The notes under the pieces: generated by a model
Database searches by the model: none
What the model was told of the DNA's origin: nothing
Seen by the model: only the letters and a program-made list of their open reading frames with translations
Shown here: in pieces, positions 1-10,114 of the stretch
Layout: every line of letters begins with the position of its first letter
How positions within the stretch are numbered: the first letter of the stretch is position 1
Position numbers and translations under genes: made by a program
Source: a virus
UHGV virus genome: UHGV-0127658
DNA: 10,588 nucleotides
Strand: one strand, 5' to 3'

Positions 1-618
1 CTTCACCATGTCAAACATCCACTCTGCGGCGGTCAGGTCTTCTGCTGTCCCCCACTTGCTGCCGCTCTGAATTGCAGCATCCGGTTTCACCACAGAAAGG
101 TCGTTTTCTGGCTGGTCAGAGGATTCGCCAGAATTCTCTGACGAATAATCTTTTCTTTTTTCTTTTGTAATAGTGTCTTTTGTGTCCCCCTGTTTTGAGG
201 GATAGCAATCCCCCAATTTGAGGGATGTTTTATCCCTCGTTTTAGGGGATTTTCCCTCGTTTTGAGGGATGCACCATTCTGAGATGTTTTTATTTGGTCC
301 AAACATGCCGCCTTGCTGCTTGATAATATTCATTCTGACGAGTTCTAACTTGGCTTCATTGCACCGTTTGACAGGTAACTTTGTAATCTCGCTAAGTTGA
401 GAATCGGTGATTCTGTCCATTGGTTTATTCCACCCATAGGTTTTACGCAGAATGGCAAGCAGCACTTTAAACTGTCGCTTGGTCAGATCTGCGCCCGAAT
501 AAGCCTCAAGCAGCATATTTGATAGTCTGGCGTAACCATCATCGAGATCTGCCACATTACGCTCCTGTCCGGCAAAGTTACCTCTGCCGAAGTTGAGTAT
601 TTTTGCTGTATTTGTCAT
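1..618 (-). CDS. O: Replication initiation protein O, N-terminal ~206 codons (3' end lies beyond the window start)
   Basis: Minus-strand ATG at 618-616 preceded by AGGAG (628-624). Frame stays open to position 1 (hand-translated; ends ...SKWGTAEDLTAAEWMFDMVK at positions 60-1). Translation begins MTNTAKILNFGRGNFAGQERNVADLDDGYARLSNML..., which I recognise as lambda O. Absent from the ORF track because no stop is reached inside the window. Confidence 0.9.
   Translation of the reverse strand, partial: MTNTAKILNFGRGNFAGQERNVADLDDGYARLSNMLLEAYSGADLTKRQFKVLLAILRKTYGWNKPMDRITDSQLSEITKLPVKRCNEAKLELVRMNIIKQQGGMFGPNKNISEWCIPQNEGKSPKTRDKTSLKLGDCYPSKQGDTKDTITKEKRKDYSSENSGESSDQPENDLSVVKPDAAIQSGSKWGTAEDLTAAEWMFDMVK
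184..270. repeat. Replication origin iterons: four ~19-bp direct repeats (consensus on the O-sense strand ATCCCTCAAAACGAGGGA), flanked at 130-180 by an AT-rich tract
   Basis: Four copies read directly at 184-203, 207-226, 232-250 and 251-270, each with internal dyad symmetry (TCCC...GGGA). Adjacent AT-rich stretch cttttcttttttcttttgtaatagtgtcttttgtg. They lie inside the O reading frame, as in ori-lambda. Confidence 0.85.
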
Positions 619-650
619 AATGACTCCTGTTGATAGATCCAGTAATGACC

Positions 651-947
651 TCAGAACTCCATCTGGATTTGTTCAGAACGCTCGGTTGCCGCCGGGCGTT
701 TTTTATTGGTGAGTCCATCAAGCGCATACTTAAAAGCCCTGCTAATCGGACTGATGTCTGATGCCATTCCGAAAGCACACAAGACCGAAGCAATAAATCT
801 CCAATCCGTTCTGCTTATCTTCGATTCATGACAGCCAATCATCTTTGCCAGACCGCGCTGGGTAATAGCTGACAGATTGATAAGTAAATCTGTTTCTGCG
901 CGATCAACGTCACGCTGTGATAGTTTGCTGTAACTTGTTCTTTCCAT
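651..947 (-). CDS. cII: CII transcriptional activator (lysogeny establishment), chimeric: lambda-type C-terminus with a divergent N-terminal two-thirds
   Basis: 98-aa minus-strand ORF. The last ~20 residues, TNKKRPAATERSEQIQMEF, match what I recall of lambda CII; the preceding part does not. The spacer to the O start (619-650) also looks lambda-like. Position between cro and O is canonical. Confidence 0.85.
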   Translation of the reverse strand: MERTSYSKLSQRDVDRAETDLLINLSAITQRGLAKMIGCHESKISRTDWRFIASVLCAFGMASDISPISRAFKYALDGLTNKKRPAATERSEQIQMEF

Positions 948-1032
948 TTCTTAAGATTTCCAATAGTGAATAGTTAGTTGAAAGGTATGCGTGGAAACGC
1001 ATATGGCCTTAGTTGGTCAGATATCTTGGAAC

Positions 1033-1077
1033 TCGCTTTTCAGCGACGTAGGACGAATGTCCGTTGTTACAAAGAGC
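1033..1077 (-). promoter_or_regulatory. nutR-like N-utilisation site: boxA (1077-1064, GCTCTTTGTAACAA) and boxB hairpin (1046-1033, UCGCUGAAAAGCGA)
   Basis: Lies immediately downstream of the cro stop on the transcribed (minus) strand. boxA resembles the consensus CGCTCTTTAACAA. boxB is a 4-bp stem with a UGAAAA loop and is nearly identical to the nutL hairpin at 3875-3888; both are preceded by CTACG. Confidence 0.6.
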
Positions 1078-1088
1078 GGATCCGCTTA

Positions 1089-1304
1089 TTAAGCGGCTTT
1101 GTGTTCCGGCGGGAACACGTCATCAAGACTGACTTTTGCGCCTAACTTGTTTAGGCACGCAACAAGAGCACGGCATGTTTTAAGGTCTGGGAAGCGACGA
1201 CCAGATTCCCAATGTCCGATAGCTCCCTGTGTGCATCCAACTGCCTTAGCAAGTGTTGTTTGAGAGATATTCAGTGACTCTCGATATTTTCGTAGGTTGC
1301 TCAT
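1089..1304 (-). CDS. cro: Cro-like HTH (XRE-type) repressor, 71 aa
   Basis: The ORF-track entry 1089..1397 is trimmed to the internal ATG at 1304-1302, which is preceded by GGAGGG (1313-1308). Protein MSNLRKYRESLNISQTTLAKAVGCTQGAIGHWESG... has a helix-turn-helix whose recognition-helix motif TQGAIGHW is mirrored in the divergent cI (TQGGIGHW). Position and divergent orientation relative to cI fit cro. Not lambda Cro by sequence. Confidence 0.75.
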   Translation of the reverse strand: MSNLRKYRESLNISQTTLAKAVGCTQGAIGHWESGRRFPDLKTCRALVACLNKLGAKVSLDDVFPPEHKAA

Positions 1305-1420
1305 ATGCCCTCCATAGTAAACACGAATAAAAAATACAATATGTACTTTACGAATACAAGTAAAAATACACATTGTGCATGGATGGTTCCAGTACAAAGC
1401 GTAATAATAAGGACATGAAA
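1305..1420. promoter_or_regulatory. OR operator / divergent pR-pRM control region
   Basis: 116-bp AT-rich spacer between the divergent cro and cI starts. Candidate pR on the minus strand: -35 TTGTAT (1359-1354), 17-bp spacer, -10 TATTTT (1336-1331). The 13-mer ATATGTACTTTAC (1339-1351) sits in the pR spacer and recurs inverted at the pL region (3777-3789). pRM elements could not be assigned confidently. Confidence 0.6.
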
Positions 1421-2074
1421 ATGAAATGGTATGAACTGGCTAGATCCAGAATGAAAGAGCTCGGCATAACTCAAGAGAAGTTAGCCGAAGAGCTAGGTAT
1501 GACGCAGGGTGGGATTGGACACTGGTTGCGCGGATCTCGTCATCCATCTCTTAGTGATATTGGTGTGGTGTTTAAATACCTTGGTATTGATAACATATCA
1601 TTCAACCACGACGGGACATTTTCACCTGTTGGCGAATACTCATCGGCCCCAGTTAAAAAACAATATGAGTACCCTGTTTTTTCTCATGTTCAGGCTGGGA
1701 TGTTCTCTCCAGAACTCAGAACCTTTACCAAAGGCGATGCGGAGAGATTGGTAAGCACAACCAAAAAAGCCAGTGACTCTGCATTCTGGCTTGAGGTTGA
1801 AGGTAACTCAATGACCGCACCAACAGGTTCCAAGCCCAGCTTTCCTGACGGGATGTTAATTCTGGTTGACCCTGAGCAGGCTGTTGAGCCAGGCGATTTC
1901 TGTATAGCCAGACTTGGTGGTGATGAGTTTACCTTCAAGAAACTGATCAGGGATAGCGGTCAGATGTTTCTACAGCCACTAAACCCACAATACCCAATGA
2001 TCCCATGCAATGAGAGTTGTTCCGTTGTGGGGAAAGTTATCGCTAGTCAGTGGCCTGAAGAGACGTTTGGGTGA
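1421..2074 (+). CDS. cI: CI prophage repressor (HTH DNA-binding domain + LexA/S24-like autocleavage domain), chimeric
   Basis: ORF-track 1373..2074 starts at TTG; I prefer ATG 1421 (AAGGA at 1408-1412, MKWYELAR...). The C-terminal ~135 aa ([28 protein letters not shown]...GNSMTAP...[12 protein letters not shown]...[12 protein letters not shown]) is near-identical to my recollection of lambda CI, including the Ser/Lys catalytic dyad context. The N-terminal ~80 aa is unrelated to lambda CI but carries an HTH. Confidence 0.85.
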
Positions 2075-2173
2075 TGTGACTGCATGTAATTTATCAAAAG
2101 CGCACATACCCTATGCTAAACAACTTACTGATTAATTTACTGAAAATCATTTATTAAAAAATAAGGATTGCCA

Positions 2174-3025
2174 ATGAATTTTTCGGAAGAAAAAAATAAA
2201 GATTTCCCCAAAAAAGTACAAACTTCGCTATTTGAAGTAGATTGTAATGACGGATACTCATTTGTAGATGTCTTGAAGACATGCGAAAATTTCAAACAAA
2301 ACTATGACTTTGAGTACTCTAACGACACTCGGGCAAGGATAAAAAGTCTAATAGTTAACGATGACCAAATCTTTGCTGGGATAACACTCTATGAGCCCAA
2401 AGCTTTGGTCCCGGTAACTCCAAAAGATGGAGACCATAACGATTTGCAGGATGTAGATAATTATGATAAATGCCATATATTCTTGCTTGCAACAGAAAGC
2501 AATATTCTAACAATTTTTCAACTATCAGGAACTCATCCTTTATCTAAGTTAAAAAAAATATTTAGCCTCATGAATATCAATGTGAATATTTCTGAGAAAC
2601 TCAACAAAGATGCACTTGGCAAGATAATAAAAGATGGAATACGCTCCATCAGCCTAAGTATTGAAACAACAAAAGAAGATCTAGAAGAGACAAAAGCAAC
2701 ATCATTAGGTATCACTGGAAAAGCTAAAGAAGCTTTGTCAAGATTATTTGAGAAAGAGCAAGATGATGACAACTCTTTCTATGGGCTTCTGACTCTTGAC
2801 AAGAGACATAACCCAAAACTCTTAAATATTGCGAACAAAAATCCAAGCCTGATCATTGATGAATTATCGGAAGAGTTCTTCATCACAACATCAAAAGGCC
2901 AAGCGATCAAAAGCTCTGAAATCAAAACAAAAAAAGATTATTACACAAGAAAGTATGGCTCTACCACCATAAAAGCGGAACACGCTAAGGAAATTCTTGA
3001 GCACTTCAAGGATTTCATACTATAA
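2174..3025 (+). CDS. Hypothetical soluble protein (~283 aa) at the rexA position; candidate sensor component of a prophage exclusion/abortive-infection pair
   Basis: ORF-track 2168..3025 (TTG start); I prefer ATG 2174 with AAGGA at 2163-2167. Lys/Glu/Asp-rich, no TM segments, no P-loop or other motif I can recognise. Co-directional and immediately downstream of cI. Sampled 60-bp lines give roughly 27% G+C versus roughly 55% in the flanking lambda-like genes (hand count, not a full computation). Confidence 0.7.
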   Translation: MNFSEEKNKDFPKKVQTSLFEVDCNDGYSFVDVLKTCENFKQNYDFEYSNDTRARIKSLIVNDDQIFAGITLYEPKALVPVTPKDGDHNDLQDVDNYDKCHIFLLATESNILTIFQLSGTHPLSKLKKIFSLMNINVNISEKLNKDALGKIIKDGIRSISLSIETTKEDLEETKATSLGITGKAKEALSRLFEKEQDDDNSFYGLLTLDKRHNPKLLNIANKNPSLIIDELSEEFFITTSKGQAIKSSEIKTKKDYYTRKYGSTTIKAEHAKEILEHFKDFIL

Positions 3026-3062
3026 TGGAGGGTTGTACGTATAACCAAAGGGGGAGGTGTGA

Positions 3063-3554
3063 ATGAGAGGTAAAGATTGGAGTTATATTTTTTCCATAAT
3101 CTTTTTTATCTGCCTTTCTCTTGTATTAACTTATTATTTACATGATAAGGTTAGATATAACAAAGAGTTGCTTGGACTTGTGGCAAATATATTTTCAATA
3201 TTAACAGGGTTTCTGTTACTTGTTATAACCACAAGTGGAGACGTAGCATCGTTTACAGAAGGTAAATCAAGATCAGAAAAGTATGCAACTAAGAGGAAAT
3301 TCGAAATTCGGTTTTCTCGTTACATGATGCTTTTTTACCTCTATCTTACAGTCTTGTGCTTAATATTCTTCTACTACATGCTGCTGCCACCAGGAGACAC
3401 CAGTAAAATCTTAGCAAGCAAGCCGCCTGTGACCAACCTGAGTCTGGCACTTGAGTTTATTATATGCTGGCTAAGCATAATTTCATTTGGATGCTCTTTT
3501 TTCATACCAATAAAGCTGAAACAGATTTATAACGAAAAACTCAAGCAACAATAA
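3063..3554 (+). CDS. Hypothetical small inner-membrane protein (163 aa, four predicted TM helices) at the rexB position; candidate membrane effector
   Basis: ATG 3063 preceded by GGGGGAGG (3050-3057). Four hydrophobic stretches of about 20 aa: WSYIFSIIFFICLSLVLTYYL, LLGLVANIFSILTGFLLLVITT, YMMLFYLYLTVLCLIFFYYMLL, LSLALEFIICWLSIISFGCSFFIPI. Same AT-rich composition as the upstream gene. Topology resembles RexB-type proteins, but the sequence is not what I recall for lambda RexB. Confidence 0.75.
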   Translation: MRGKDWSYIFSIIFFICLSLVLTYYLHDKVRYNKELLGLVANIFSILTGFLLLVITTSGDVASFTEGKSRSEKYATKRKFEIRFSRYMMLFYLYLTVLCLIFFYYMLLPPGDTSKILASKPPVTNLSLALEFIICWLSIISFGCSFFIPIKLKQIYNEKLKQQ

Positions 3555-3580
3555 CCCGGTCTCAGCGCCGGGTTTTCTTT
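3554..3580 (+). terminator. Rho-independent terminator closing the cI / rex-position operon (t-imm analogue)
   Basis: Stem ACCCGG (3554-3559) / CCGGGT (3568-3573) with loop tctcagcg, followed by TTTCTTT (3574-3580), directly after the membrane-protein stop. Confidence 0.6.
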
Positions 3581-3763
3581 GCCTCACGATCGCCCCACCT
3601 AAAAACACATAACCAATTGTATTTATTGAAAAATAAATAGATGCAACCCACTAAACCACGCAATTCTGATCTCTCCTTACATCGCCGAGGCAATACATCC
3701 ACGCTAAAAAACAACACTATTAAATACAAAGCGTTATAAAAAACCACGCCAACTTACAACAAA

Positions 3764-3797
3764 TTGTATTGATCTTGTAAAGTACATATCGTACTAT
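3764..3797 (+). promoter_or_regulatory. Candidate pL promoter with overlapping OL operator
   Basis: -35 TTGATC (3769-3774), 17-bp spacer, -10 TACTAT (3792-3797). The 15-bp palindrome AGTACatatcGTACT (3781-3795) and the inverted copy of the OR 13-mer (3777-3789) overlap the spacer and -10. It is upstream of nutL and N. Confidence 0.5.
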
Positions 3798-3843
3798 TTA
3801 ATCGTCAGCAGGACGCTGGAAGCCAAATGGAACAGACTGGCAG

Positions 3844-3888
3844 GCTCTTTAAACAACGTCGACTCTCGACTACGTGGCTGAAAAGCCA
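3844..3888 (+). promoter_or_regulatory. nutL-like site: boxA (3844-3856, GCTCTTTAAACAA) and boxB hairpin (3875-3888, UGGCUGAAAAGCCA)
   Basis: Located between the candidate pL and the N start. boxA is close to the consensus; boxB matches the nutR hairpin except for the compensating stem pair. An alternative small hairpin GTCGActcTCGAC lies at 3858-3870. Confidence 0.6.
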
Positions 3889-3986
3889 GATCACCCAACC
3901 ACATAAGCTGTGGGATGCAATGCCGAAGCAACCGTCTCAGGAGGAGCTTCGAGATTGCATCGCCAAAGTTTATTCGGGAGGAATCC

Positions 3987-4259
3987 ATGTCCAGAAAAAC
4001 AGAATTTAAAGGCACCGCAGCTTCTCGCCGTAGAGCTCGTCGCGCAAATCTGCAAAGTCAGGAGGCGATCAGCTCCGACAAGCTACACAGGCCAACCCCT
4101 TCACGAGTGGTCTTGCAATGCAAGCGCAAACCAGCAATGAGAGCAGAAGTGATAACTCTGACAACGTTGACCAGAAAATATGAAGGTTCAACTTGTCTTC
4201 CGAACGTAGCCATTTACGCGGCAGGCTACAGGAAATCAAAACAACTGACGGCGAGATGA
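3987..4259 (+). CDS. N: N-type transcription antitermination protein (P22 gp24-like C-terminus), 90 aa
   Basis: The ORF-track entry 3915..4259 is trimmed to ATG 3987, preceded by GGGAGG (3976-3981). Arginine-rich motif near the N-terminus (TAASRRRARRANLQ). The C-terminus LPNVAIYAAGYRKSKQLTAR closely resembles what I recall of the P22 gene 24 product (…LPGVALYAAGHRKSKQITAR). First gene after pL/nutL. Confidence 0.75.
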   Translation: MSRKTEFKGTAASRRRARRANLQSQEAISSDKLHRPTPSRVVLQCKRKPAMRAEVITLTTLTRKYEGSTCLPNVAIYAAGYRKSKQLTAR

Positions 4260-4274
4260 TAAATCATTTGCTAA

Positions 4275-4856
4275 TTACTTGTTTTTGCCATGCTTATCCT
4301 GAGCGATAAGTTCATCCATAAGACTGTCTTTCTTCCCAGCAAACCTAATGTAGCACTCATTTCTATAGCGTTCCGGGATAACAAAACGGTCGATTTCAGG
4401 ATATCCAGTAGCAGAAGGTATCCGAATAAGAAGCCCTTTTTCGAGCAATGAGATTGCTTCAGGGCTTCCCTTTTCTGTCTTTAGCTGGTTATTCGCGGCT
4501 ACAGCGAATGCCAAATACGCTCTTTCTCCAAGAGTTAACGAATCAAACAAATCTTGCACATATTTTTCTTCTTTAGATTTGCGCTTCTGAGCAGCGGATA
4601 CCTCAATTCTTTCAGTCACAGCGTGATAAGCGGAATTAACAACACCGTTAAGCACATAGCTAACGCAGAACAACAGGATGTAATACATCCAATAATGAGG
4701 AAGGATTTCTGGATTATGCAGGTTTATCCATTCTTTTACGCTTACCGGCATAACAATAATCAATATGATCAGGATGATTAGCATATGAATCAACTGTTTA
4801 AGTGTCATTCCTTGCAGGAAAAAATGCATTAGTTCCTGCCACCATGAGTTGTTCAT
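4275..4856 (-). CDS. sieB: SieB-like superinfection exclusion membrane protein (193 aa), antisense to the pL operon
   Basis: Position between N and ral on the opposite strand is as in lambda and P22. Size is close to the ~192 aa I recall for P22 SieB. N-terminal hydrophobic segments (LIHMLIILIILIIVMPVSV, WMYYILLFCVSYVLNGVV). An alternative in-frame start exists at 4829. Assignment rests on synteny and topology, not verified homology. Confidence 0.55.
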   Translation of the reverse strand: MNNSWWQELMHFFLQGMTLKQLIHMLIILIILIIVMPVSVKEWINLHNPEILPHYWMYYILLFCVSYVLNGVVNSAYHAVTERIEVSAAQKRKSKEEKYVQDLFDSLTLGERAYLAFAVAANNQLKTEKGSPEAISLLEKGLLIRIPSATGYPEIDRFVIPERYRNECYIRFAGKKDSLMDELIAQDKHGKNK

Positions 4857-5069
4857 CGGCGTTTCTCTTTTGCTCTCTGTAGGGGTGAATAGAGTTTATC
4901 CGATTTCTCGCTGTAGGGGTACACGAGAACCACCGAGCCTGATGTGGTTAAAAGACAGGCACAATCTTTACTACCGCAATCCACTATTTAAGGTGATATA
5001 TGGAAGAAGAATTTGAAGAGTTCGAAGAGCATCCTCAGGATGTGATGGAACAATACCAGGACTATCCGT

Positions 5070-5270
5070 ATGACTACGACTATTGATAAAAATCAATGGT
5101 GTGGACAATTCAAGCGATGCAATGGATGCAAGCTGCAATCGGAATGCATGGTTAAGCCTGAAGAAATGTTTCCTGTAATGGAAGATGGGAAATATGTCGA
5201 TAAATGGGCAATACGAACGACGGCAATGATTGCCAGAGAACTTGGTAAACAGAACAACAAAGCTGCCTGA
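5070..5270 (+). CDS. ral: Ral-like restriction-alleviation protein, 66 aa
   Basis: 66-aa ORF at the lambda ral position (after N and sieB), the same length I recall for lambda Ral. Cys-rich N-terminal part (CGQFKRCNGCKLQSEC). Recognition is by synteny and size; I cannot verify the sequence from memory. Confidence 0.6.
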   Translation: MTTTIDKNQWCGQFKRCNGCKLQSECMVKPEEMFPVMEDGKYVDKWAIRTTAMIARELGKQNNKAA

Positions 5271-5406
5271 TAGTGGCCTTTATTTTTGGCATAAATAACA
5301 GAATAAACACTGCACTGTGTATTCATTCCAACGAGTGAATACACGGAGAAGTGTCGCTCGTAACTAAACAGGAGCCGACTTGTTCTGATTATTGGAAATC
5401 TTCTTT

Positions 5407-6309: not shown

Positions 6310-6621
6310 ATGATGATTCTGACTCTGAATGATAAGCGTGAAATATCGCAAATCATCGCAAGTTTTACTGATGAAGATTACGAACGAATCAACAGTGAAG
6401 TTGATCGCCTCTGCAAACGGTGCGCCCCAATAAGCGAAATGCTTCGCTCATATAAACCAGATGAACACACTAAGGACGCTATCGACTGGCTGGAAGATGA
6501 TGACTGTGACTATCAGGAAAAAGCCGCTGAATGGTTCTGGTATGCAATAACCAAAAGAGTTAAGGCTGAATATGCCTTCGCAATATTCAAACGCAGACAC
6601 ATTTTTGGAGAAGCAGCATGA
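6310..6621 (+). CDS. Hypothetical protein (103 aa) immediately upstream of, and coupled to, the recombinase gene
   Basis: SD AGGAGAAAG (6301-6309); ATG at 6310 or 6313. Stop overlaps the recT start (ATGA at 6618-6621). Acidic and Trp-rich (DWLEDDDCDYQEKAAEWFWY). No family recognised. Confidence 0.6.
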   Translation: MMILTLNDKREISQIIASFTDEDYERINSEVDRLCKRCAPISEMLRSYKPDEHTKDAIDWLEDDDCDYQEKAAEWFWYAITKRVKAEYAFAIFKRRHIFGEAA

Positions 6622-7520
6622 GCAATATCGTTGAATTCGTTAAACAGCAAGAGCAGTTATTCTGCGGAGCATTGACTGAACAGACGGTGACATGGGCTAA
6701 GGAAAGCCAGTTTGCAATTCAGTATTTCCAGAAAAATGATTACCTGGCTAAAACAGCACTGGCAAATCCAACCAGCGCACAGAACGCCATCATCAATGTT
6801 GCGGCGATCGGAATCACCTTGAACCCGGCCAGCAAACTGGCTTATCTGGTTCCGCGCGACGGCATGGTGTGCCTTGATATCAGCTATATGGGATTACTTC
6901 ACCTTGCACAGTCGACAGGATCAATTAAGTGGGGGCAATGCAAACTGGTGTACTCAAACGACACCTATGAATCAAATGGCCTTGATTCAGCACCAACCCA
7001 CAAATACAACGCATTTGGTGAGCGAGGCTCTATTGTTGGTGGTTATTGCACGGTTAAAACAGCAGATGGTGACTACCTGACTGAAGAAATGAGTCTGGCA
7101 GAAATTAAAGCTGTGGAAGCAACGAGCAAGGCAAAGAATGGACCGTGGAAAACATTCTGGGAAGAGATGGCGCGTAAAACAATAGTTAAACGCGCCAGCA
7201 AATACTGGCCTAAAGCCCAGCGACTGGATAATGCCATTCACCTGCTTAACGAAGATGAAGGTATGCATCAGGAACCAGTTATGCCGCACAAATCAGAGGA
7301 AGATATCCGCGAAGATGAACGGAAACGCCAGCAGGAAATAATGGATAAAGCACAACTTCTTTGTGATGAAATGGCTCAGGCAGAAAACATGGATGATTTG
7401 AAGCGATATTTTGCAGAAGCATATCGTCTGACATCTGGAATGAAATTGCAGCAGAACGTACAAGCCATTTACATAGAATGCAAAGCGAAACTGGAGGTTG
7501 CCAGTGAGCAAACTGTATGA
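6618..7520 (+). CDS. recT: RecT-family single-strand annealing protein (recombinase), 300 aa
   Basis: GGAGAAG 6606-6612 before ATG 6618. The C-terminal motif GPWKTFWEEMARKTIVKRASKYWP is the RecT-family signature as I recall it from Rac RecT and Gram-positive phage RecT proteins. Sits where lambda has bet. Confidence 0.8.
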   Translation: MSNIVEFVKQQEQLFCGALTEQTVTWAKESQFAIQYFQKNDYLAKTALANPTSAQNAIINVAAIGITLNPASKLAYLVPRDGMVCLDISYMGLLHLAQSTGSIKWGQCKLVYSNDTYESNGLDSAPTHKYNAFGERGSIVGGYCTVKTADGDYLTEEMSLAEIKAVEATSKAKNGPWKTFWEEMARKTIVKRASKYWPKAQRLDNAIHLLNEDEGMHQEPVMPHKSEEDIREDERKRQQEIMDKAQLLCDEMAQAENMDDLKRYFAEAYRLTSGMKLQQNVQAIYIECKAKLEVASEQTV

Positions 7521-7986
7521 AATTGCCAATGAATACGCAAAATTGATGGATTCAGATTTAGAACCAGAGATGATTGCTGACACAATAGAAGGCATGGAAG
7601 GAGAATTTACCAATAAAATAGAGCAACTTCTTTCCGTCATTAAAAATGAATCTGGTTATGCCGAACGCCTCAAGGAAGAGGCAAAGTCACTGAATGAGCG
7701 AGCTGCAGTAATTCAAAATAAGATTGACAGCATCAAATCATATATAGCGTCATCGCTTGAAATGGTTGGCAAGAAAAATATTCGAGCAGGTATTCACCAG
7801 GTAACAATCCGCAAACCGTCAGAAATTGTAGAAATCATCGACTCAAGCGCCCTTCCTCCAGAATACGTTGAGTTTGAAACAACAATAAAAGCCGACAAAC
7901 TGGCAATCAAACACCAACTAAAAGCAGGAATAAATATCCCCGGCGCTCAACTCAAAGTTGGGAAACCTTCACTTCTTATCAAATAA
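7504..7986 (+). CDS. Siphovirus Gp157-like protein (recombinase-associated), ~160 aa
   Basis: ORF-track 7498..7986 starts at TTG; GTG 7504 has better spacing from GGAGG (7490-7494). It overlaps the recT 3' end. N-terminal SKLYEIANEYAKLMDSDLEPEMIADTIEGMEGEF and overall helical, coiled-coil character match the Gp157 family found next to phage annealing proteins. Confidence 0.6.
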   Translation: MSKLYEIANEYAKLMDSDLEPEMIADTIEGMEGEFTNKIEQLLSVIKNESGYAERLKEEAKSLNERAAVIQNKIDSIKSYIASSLEMVGKKNIRAGIHQVTIRKPSEIVEIIDSSALPPEYVEFETTIKADKLAIKHQLKAGINIPGAQLKVGKPSLLIK

Positions 7987-9598: not shown

Positions 9599-10114
9599 AT
9601 GGCGCTAACACACCGCGAACTCTGTCAGATTGCGTACAAGTTCCTTAAGCGCAACGGGTTCAAGGTTTGTTTTCATGACCGCTTTATAGCTGTAACCAGT
9701 ACCGGAGAACAGCCAGATGCTATGGGATTCAGAAATTCAGCATCATGCCTGATAGAGGCGAAGTGTTCTCGTGCTGACTTGTTGGCAGATAGAAAAAAGC
9801 GTTTTCGTAAAAATCCGTCTCTTGGAATGGGCGACTGGCGATTCTTTATTAGTGAGCCGGGAATTATTTCAATTGAGGATTTACCACCTGGCTGGGGATT
9901 ACTTCACGTTGTTAACGGAAGAGTACGGAAAGTACATGGGTGGCCCAAGGGTAATTGCTGTTGGGGTAATCCTGACGATAAGCCATTTACTGGAAATAAG
10001 CAGGTTGAATGCGATTACATGTTATCTGCATTAAGGCGCATGGAGTTGAGAGGGCACCTTAATGAAATATATGACGGTGTAATTGTTAATAAGAAAGAAG
10101 GAAACGCGGCATGA
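9599..10114 (+). CDS. PD-(D/E)xK nuclease-fold protein (MmcB-like), 171 aa
   Basis: ATG 9599 lies 1 nt after the upstream stop. Candidate catalytic motif: GEQPD(44)AMGF ... LIE(58)AK(60)CS, i.e. PD followed ~14 residues later by ExK. Cys/Trp-rich C-terminus (GWPKGNCCWGNPDD). Confidence 0.65.
   Translation: MALTHRELCQIAYKFLKRNGFKVCFHDRFIAVTSTGEQPDAMGFRNSASCLIEAKCSRADLLADRKKRFRKNPSLGMGDWRFFISEPGIISIEDLPPGWGLLHVVNGRVRKVHGWPKGNCCWGNPDDKPFTGNKQVECDYMLSALRRMELRGHLNEIYDGVIVNKKEGNAA

Follow-up and report, generated by a model that had tools for sequence, protein, structure and literature searches.

The Rex system of phage lambda was the first abortive-infection system to be discovered, and both its trigger and the activation of RexB by RexA are still puzzling after about 70 years. 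Five Rex-type systems have been described to date (PMC12894663). Actinobacteriophages have Rex-like pairs that exclude a broad range of heterotypic phages; the RexA-like partner in these pairs forms dimers and binds DNA (PMC11077077, PMC12894663). RexA has structural relatives, which include RdgC, an epimerase, IML3 and CHL4 (PMC11077077). The interval between cI and N is a mosaic hotspot, which also houses the abortive-infection gene bstA (PMC8585504). Here we describe a pair of genes, A and B, located in this interval on a 10,588-nucleotide (nt) stretch of the virus genome UHGV-0127658 (the window, meaning the whole stretch that was analysed). We consider it probable that the A-B cassette, which prophages carry as cargo, encodes a two-component phage-exclusion (abortive-infection) system of the RexAB type that has diverged very far. 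The cassette, its signals and its junctions are given below in window coordinates; TM stands for transmembrane and aa for amino acids.

2075-2173, (+): left junction and spacer between cI and A, 99 nt, AT-rich (29% G+C)
2174-3025, (+): gene A, 283 aa, soluble; ATG at 2174, stop at 3025, AAGGA Shine-Dalgarno sequence 5 nt upstream
2997-3026, (+): sigma-70-like sequence TTGAGC-18-TATAAT in the 3' end of gene A, 37 nt before B; a consensus match only
3063-3554, (+): gene B, 163 aa, four TM segments; ATG at 3063, stop at 3554, GGAGG Shine-Dalgarno sequence
3546-3675, (+): right junction and conserved flank, common to lambda (90%) and hundreds of E. coli lambdoid prophages with other cargo
3553-3574 (stem), T-run to about 3580, (+): intrinsic terminator closing the cI-A-B unit, AACCCGG...CCGGGTT followed by TTCTTTG

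The original prediction, made from the letters of the window, had called two genes between cI and a terminator, and the coordinates, the sizes of 283 and 163 aa, the four TM helices and the terminator were all correct. Comparison with lambda by blastn defined both junctions. Window positions 1664-2075, comprising the C-terminal half and the stop codon of cI, are 94.7% identical to lambda, and homology to lambda and to other lambdoid prophages stops one base past the cI stop codon. The lambda match is absent after 2075 and returns at 3546-3675 with 90% identity over the last rexB codons, t_imm and the sequence beyond. The terminator at 3553-3580 is homologous to lambda t_imm at the end of rexB. 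Judged by these junctions, the cassette stands precisely where lambda has rexA-rexB, with the cI stop codon on one side and t_imm on the other. An alignment of four lambdoid elements, namely the window, lambda, E. coli 2009C-3133 and E. coli 2014C-3061, showed the flanks to be the same as far as 'TGAT' behind cI and again beginning with 'TAACCCGG...'; the four cargoes enclosed by them are unrelated. The position at the rexA-rexB locus is thereby borne out more strongly than had been proposed. Since the flanks are identical and the cargoes differ, the interval from the cI stop codon to t_imm represents a cargo-exchange slot with fixed junctions (window 2072-2078 and 3552-3600). This agrees with the published cI-N hotspot (PMC8585504), and the presence of the abortive-infection gene bstA in that interval speaks for a Rex-type exclusion system. 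The right-hand flank was found in about 830 of 5,426 complete E. coli genomes and the cassette in only 7 of them.

Other occupants of the same slot were observed as well. Strains 2014C-3061 and PK8277 carry a 144-aa open reading frame (ORF) followed by one of 200 or 206 aa, and strain 2009C-3133, whose Cro and CII proteins are the same as those of the window, has one ORF, of 126 aa. PADLOC models matched no protein of these cargoes, and no Pfam match reached the gathering score. The corresponding loci are L074 (2426-3510), L075 and L076 (2876-3500).

Within the cassette, the gap between A and B measures 37 nt and both genes are oriented like cI. No terminator was predicted between cI and A (2075-2173). 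The sigma-70-like sequence at 2997-3026 is a possible positional analogue of lambda pLIT, from which a rexB-only transcript originates. A -10-like T-A...T hexamer is partially kept in six diverged orthologues, and as the sequence overlaps the coding region we treat this putative promoter as a lead only. The cassette has a G+C content of 34.6% compared to 44.3% for the rest of the window. The foreign composition that had been noted earlier is therefore real, but the contrast of 27% versus 55% was overstated; single lines of 60 nt reach these extremes inside and outside the cassette alike.

Homologues of A fell into 16 clusters at 90% identity among 5.8 billion proteins and were represented by 19 sequences at 50% identity among 1.84 billion proteins; all records with an organism name belong to Enterobacterales. 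B formed 30 clusters; among 185,579 species-representative genomes, Budvicia alone contained it. B served to retrieve 29 loci, and each of them has a homologue of A directly upstream on the same strand, so that the frames, whose conservation had been named as a test, are conserved as a pair. The pairing persists in homologues with as little as 25% (A) and 42% (B) identity, B being the more conserved partner. Non-synonymous divergence ranged from 0.22 to 0.85 and synonymous sites were saturated, which makes exact ratios of non-synonymous to synonymous substitution rates (dN/dS) unusable and at the same time indicates that A and B are under purifying selection. A and B are real genes.

The pair resides in different prophage slots. 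It follows a cI-type repressor gene in E. coli, Budvicia (L008) and the IMG/VR locus L057, lies antisense between the antiterminator gene Q and the lysis genes in Pantoea, L064 and L066, and is placed between integrase and tail-fibre genes in L059. At least three prophage cargo sites are thus confirmed. Further contexts include a position adjoining an umuC-like polymerase gene, one that follows a tail-tube gene at a distance of about 1.6 kb, and one beside an S-pyocin/PAAR gene, and most of the loci examined neighbour phage genes. In Morganella morganii (L010-L012; 5126-6501, 10504-12501) A-B follows two long unannotated ORFs, a site that we read as a prophage end. In every context the G+C content of the cassette (28-37%) is 10-18 points lower than that of the flanks (41-51%). 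The variety of prophage slots, the AT-richness relative to the flanks and the fixed pairing show that A-B behaves as an autonomous, horizontally moving accessory cassette of prophages, which moves as one unit. This behaviour agrees with the proposal of a horizontally acquired cargo.

Two of these loci deserve separate mention. The Morganella morganii copy is located about 4 kb from a type I-F CRISPR-Cas system (Csy1-3), in a neighbourhood that looks like a defence island. In L057 (4195-5568), downstream of the cI-type repressor, A is short (203 aa) and separated by a 277-nt gap from an intact B. This copy may be decaying, or the shortening may mean that A is the more costly of the two partners.

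A is a soluble, acidic protein of 283 aa with an isoelectric point (pI) of 5.6. In the structure model of A, residues 1-141 contain seven strands; an alpha/beta insert (about 145-228) comes next, after which the chain returns at the C-terminal end. This layout parallels that of RexA, a protein of 279 aa in which a split globular domain (1-139 and 248-279) encloses a dimerisation domain (143-234). At the level of predicted structure A thus exhibits the two-domain arrangement of the RexA/RdgC type, with a split globular part and an inserted dimerisation domain. About half of A, and no more, superposes on the RexA crystal structure. A is accordingly predicted to be a soluble protein with a RexA/RdgC-like two-domain fold. 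A search of PDB sequences with the hidden Markov model (HMM) of the A family returned CD2 as its only match, which was judged spurious.

B is a basic inner-membrane protein (163 aa, pI 9.4). Hydropathy and the AlphaFold2 (AF2) model place its TM segments at residues 8-30, 37-61, 90-108 and 132-150, compared to 8-26, 42-66, 84-102 and 116-134 in RexB. The loop between TM2 and TM3 contains eight lysine or arginine residues in B (65-89) and five in RexB (67-83). Hydropathy and the positive-inside rule predict that both termini of B are cytoplasmic (N-in/C-in), as in RexB. B therefore has the architecture of a RexB-type protein, being small, with four TM segments, cytoplasmic termini and a basic TM2-TM3 loop. 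The AF2 model consists of a four-helix bundle with four long helices and a predicted local distance difference test (pLDDT) score of 74.8. TM2 carries the invariant motif ANIFS-LTGFLLLVI. Weak matches of B to DUF4064 were below threshold and were disregarded.

The layout of a cytoplasmic protein and a small four-TM membrane protein, suggested earlier as that of a sensor and a membrane effector, is confirmed. In the sense of the literature on RexAB-type systems (PMC12894663, PMC11077077), A-B consists of adjacent co-directional genes for a protein with a predicted RexA fold and a four-TM protein on a temperate phage or prophage. A location downstream of, and co-oriented with, cI applies to the window, Budvicia L008 and L057, and other members reside elsewhere. 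The predicted RexA fold of A, the obligate four-TM partner, the order and sizes of the genes and the placement in the rex slot together favour a Rex-type abortive-infection mechanism. Most likely, A-B is a variant of the RexAB-type systems that is unrecognisable by sequence and not a categorically new design.

A mechanism can be proposed on this basis. By analogy with lambda, the cI promoter most likely drives the cassette in lysogens. A and B would be co-transcribed with cI from the repressor maintenance promoter, with transcription ending at the t_imm-type terminator; we infer this from the gene order, the lack of an intervening terminator and the analogy with lambda. A is proposed to act as cytoplasmic sensor and activator and B as membrane effector. 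With its predicted RexA/RdgC fold, A would sense infection in the cytoplasm, probably as a dimer recognising a phage protein or a protein-DNA intermediate of replication or recombination. Activated A would then engage B, which would probably oligomerise into a pore or channel. Depolarisation or permeabilisation of the membrane would stop growth and abort the superinfecting phage. The membrane-effector steps are modelled on lambda RexAB, Sbash gp30/31, CarolAnn gp44/43 and P. putida RexABpp.

Several observations weigh against a RexAB-type assignment. BLASTP revealed no significant similarity between A and lambda RexA or between B and lambda RexB. A had no match to Pfam or PADLOC models at E values up to 1, including the RexA models PF15969 and PDLC02339, which as positive controls matched lambda RexA at 1e-97 and 9e-110, respectively, and 0 of 25 A-family members matched PF15969. 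B likewise had no Pfam or PADLOC match, including the RexB models PF15968 and PDLC02340, which matched lambda RexB at 8.5e-92 and 8.6e-61. Profile-profile comparison with hhalign gave probabilities of 0.1-0.4% for the A family, represented by a 15-sequence and then a 25-member alignment enriched from the search of 1.84 billion proteins, against a 22-sequence RexA alignment; for the B alignment against 16 RexB sequences from IMG/VR loci the probability was 0.5%. BLASTP, profile HMMs and hhalign thus detected no high-identity RexA or RexB orthologue that would remove the novelty of the pair. Foldseek found no match of the A model in PDB, and the middle domain of this model is of low confidence (pLDDT 56-72 at residues 161-210). 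Searched against BFVD, the B model had no match at E <= 0.001 and RexB was outside the top 50, a result to be read with the poor discrimination of families among four-helix membrane bundles; a 165-aa Sbash protein appeared at rank 31 with a non-significant E value of 0.92. Because there was no significant structural match, the likeness between B and RexB is confined to topology and architecture. Moreover, the RexA-type fold also occurs in non-defence proteins (RdgC and kinetochore subunits), and the acidic character of A compared to the basic, DNA-binding RexA (pI 8.6) suggests that DNA binding may not be conserved. Finally, anti-phage defence by A-B would be expected from analogy, and the family has no phenotype on record. 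The view of the original prediction that neither protein resembles RexA or RexB accordingly stands at the sequence level (BLASTP and profiles) and falls for the predicted fold of A. The remote-homology and structure searches that it had called for had the same divided outcome, with negative sequence profiles, a RexA-like predicted fold of A and no significant structural match of B.

These observations leave room for other explanations. A-B may be mechanistically distinct from lambda Rex and yet reuse the RexA/RdgC scaffold, with A not binding DNA and responding to another trigger and B recruited independently as effector. We regard this as rather unlikely; the low pI of A and the restriction of the B-RexB likeness to architecture are compatible with it, and the order, sizes and slot of the genes speak for the Rex-type mechanism. 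If it were true, the rex slot would have been refilled by an analogous design of sensor and membrane effector, and a new defence system would already be present in the cultivable lambda-like coliphages 2G7b and PhiR11_1. A further reading, in which A-B is a new two-gene prophage defence system unrelated to Rex, the fold of A being convergent or a generic alpha/beta scaffold and B acting through another membrane mechanism, appears distinctly unlikely to us. The pair may also be of Rex type with inverted logic, as in Butters gp30/gp31, with A toxic and B sequestering or neutralising it until infection in a manner resembling toxin-antitoxin or addiction modules. In the Butters pair the effector role falls to the RexA-like protein, and defence does not require the membrane protein (PMC12894663); the strict co-occurrence of A and B is compatible with any two-partner logic, and a short A beside an intact B, as in L057, would be tolerable if A were toxic. 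However, the membrane protein is the effector in four of the five described Rex-type systems (PMC12894663), and the better conservation of B with its invariant TM2 motif suggests a functional membrane machine and not a passive anchor. We therefore consider inverted logic very unlikely.

A role outside defence, as modulator of the lysis-lysogeny switch or as factor in host fitness or membrane stress, would be consistent with the lack of a known defence phenotype and of a PADLOC match in the family. Lambda RexA biases the bistable switch without RexB (PMC11077077). However, the pair also occurs far from any repressor, antisense in the Q-lysis interval and between integrase and tail-fibre genes, which argues against a function in the switch, and an obligate membrane partner together with the placement in cargo slots suits defence better, so that we give a non-defence function little credence. 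That the frames are chance ORFs in AT-rich DNA or decaying pseudogenes has virtually no probability and is already refuted. Stop-free frames arise rarely by chance in AT-rich DNA, none of the data speak for this reading, and L057 is the one locus with a truncated A. Shine-Dalgarno sites precede both ORFs, many genera keep the frames at full length with synonymous saturation and constrained protein sequence, and the structures of both proteins are predicted with confidence. A very divergent RexAB-type exclusion system thus remains the reading that we favour.

The A-B family escapes current defence-annotation resources. A, B and their Pantoea orthologues had no match among the 5,027 models of PADLOC-DB v2.0.0 at E values up to 1, neither A nor B matched NCBIfam, and the sole PHROG match of A was phrog_23561, a group of no known function. 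A literature search for PhiR11, ECOR13, 2G7b and the protein accessions revealed no study of the family. In the narrow sense of having no Pfam, PADLOC or NCBIfam match, a PHROG of no known function and no paper found, the cassette is indeed undescribed, as had been supposed. A-B would add a sixth lineage to the Rex-type systems. Since natural lambda-like coliphages carry it in the rex slot of lambda itself, an isogenic exchange of rexAB and A-B is possible, which could show whether the fold, the topology and stoichiometry, or the sequence is the essential feature of Rex. Furthermore, the cI-to-t_imm interval is a cargo-exchange slot that holds further unannotated cargo. Even without a defence phenotype, A-B would be a conserved mobile gene pair of prophages.

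Gene order and family scans identify the window as the immunity and early region of a lambdoid prophage. The neighbouring genes are as follows.

651-947, (-): cII
about 1089-1304, (-): cro
1379-2074, (+): cI-type repressor upstream of the cassette; Pfam HTH_3 and Peptidase_S24, RefSeq annotation of the identical E. coli A11 locus, blastn against lambda
about 3987-4259, (+): N
4275-4856, (-): sieB; Pfam PF14163 (1.4e-25), PHROG 1301

E. coli strain A11 is 99.99% identical to the window over all 10,588 bases and 100% identical over the 1,526-base region under study. Phage 2G7b is 99.7% identical to the cassette region. PhiR11_1, a cultivated phage of the lambda type with E. coli K-12 MG1655 as host on record, shares 98.8% identity with window positions 1-5302, and its O, P, N, gam, bet and exo genes resemble those of lambda. 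Its homology to the window stops at about 5920. In place of the Gam/Bet/Exo of PhiR11_1 the window encodes RecT (6618-7520) and a protein of the Gp157 family (7498-7986), which indicates that one immunity region with its cassette is combined with different recombination modules. Directly 3' of N, the early-left region has the superinfection-exclusion gene sieB and with it, no more than ~700 bp away from the cassette, another candidate exclusion function. At 9599-10114 (+) the window contains an intact 171-aa ORF with no Pfam match, at a site where RefSeq lists a 'frameshifted' hypothetical pseudogene in the near-identical A11; the single difference between the window and A11 may fall in this ORF.

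The described proteins and systems closest to A-B include RdgC (PDB 2OWL). Unlike A, RdgC is a chromosomal housekeeping protein, which forms a ring-shaped dimer, has no membrane partner and is not prophage cargo. The pairs Sbash gp30/gp31, CarolAnn gp44/gp43 and Butters gp30/gp31 share with A-B the combination of a cytosolic and a four-TM protein in the immunity region of a temperate phage. They come from phages of Actinobacteria, and their RexA-like proteins, which BLAST searches started from RexA brought to light, exceed A in length (337-372 aa); in the Butters pair the partners have exchanged roles. RexABpp of the P. putida prophage P1 (PP_5643/PP_5644; PMC12894663) is likewise prophage-borne near a cI-like repressor. 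In a comparison made by description only, RexApp was detectable with HHpred (98% probability), whereas A was not detected by hhalign with the alignments used. RexABpp has experimental support, including defence, DNA binding and B-dependent membrane damage (PMC12894663), whereas A-B is known from sequence and models.

Lambda RexA/RexB (PF15969/PF15968; RexA structure PDB 8TWQ) differs from A-B in that neither protein shows detectable sequence similarity, even by profile-profile comparison. B exceeds RexB by 19 residues, its TM3-TM4 loop is longer and its invariant motif is another one, and A-B is also found in the Q-lysis interval and at the integrase/tail-fibre end. In contrast to the sequences, the organisation is closely matched. 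Both pairs occupy the slot between the cI stop codon and t_imm in the orientation of cI, both encode a soluble protein of ~280 aa followed by a four-TM protein of ~150 aa, and both are AT-rich relative to the phage backbone. Furthermore, RexB and B share the predicted N-in/C-in four-TM topology and the basic TM2-TM3 loop.

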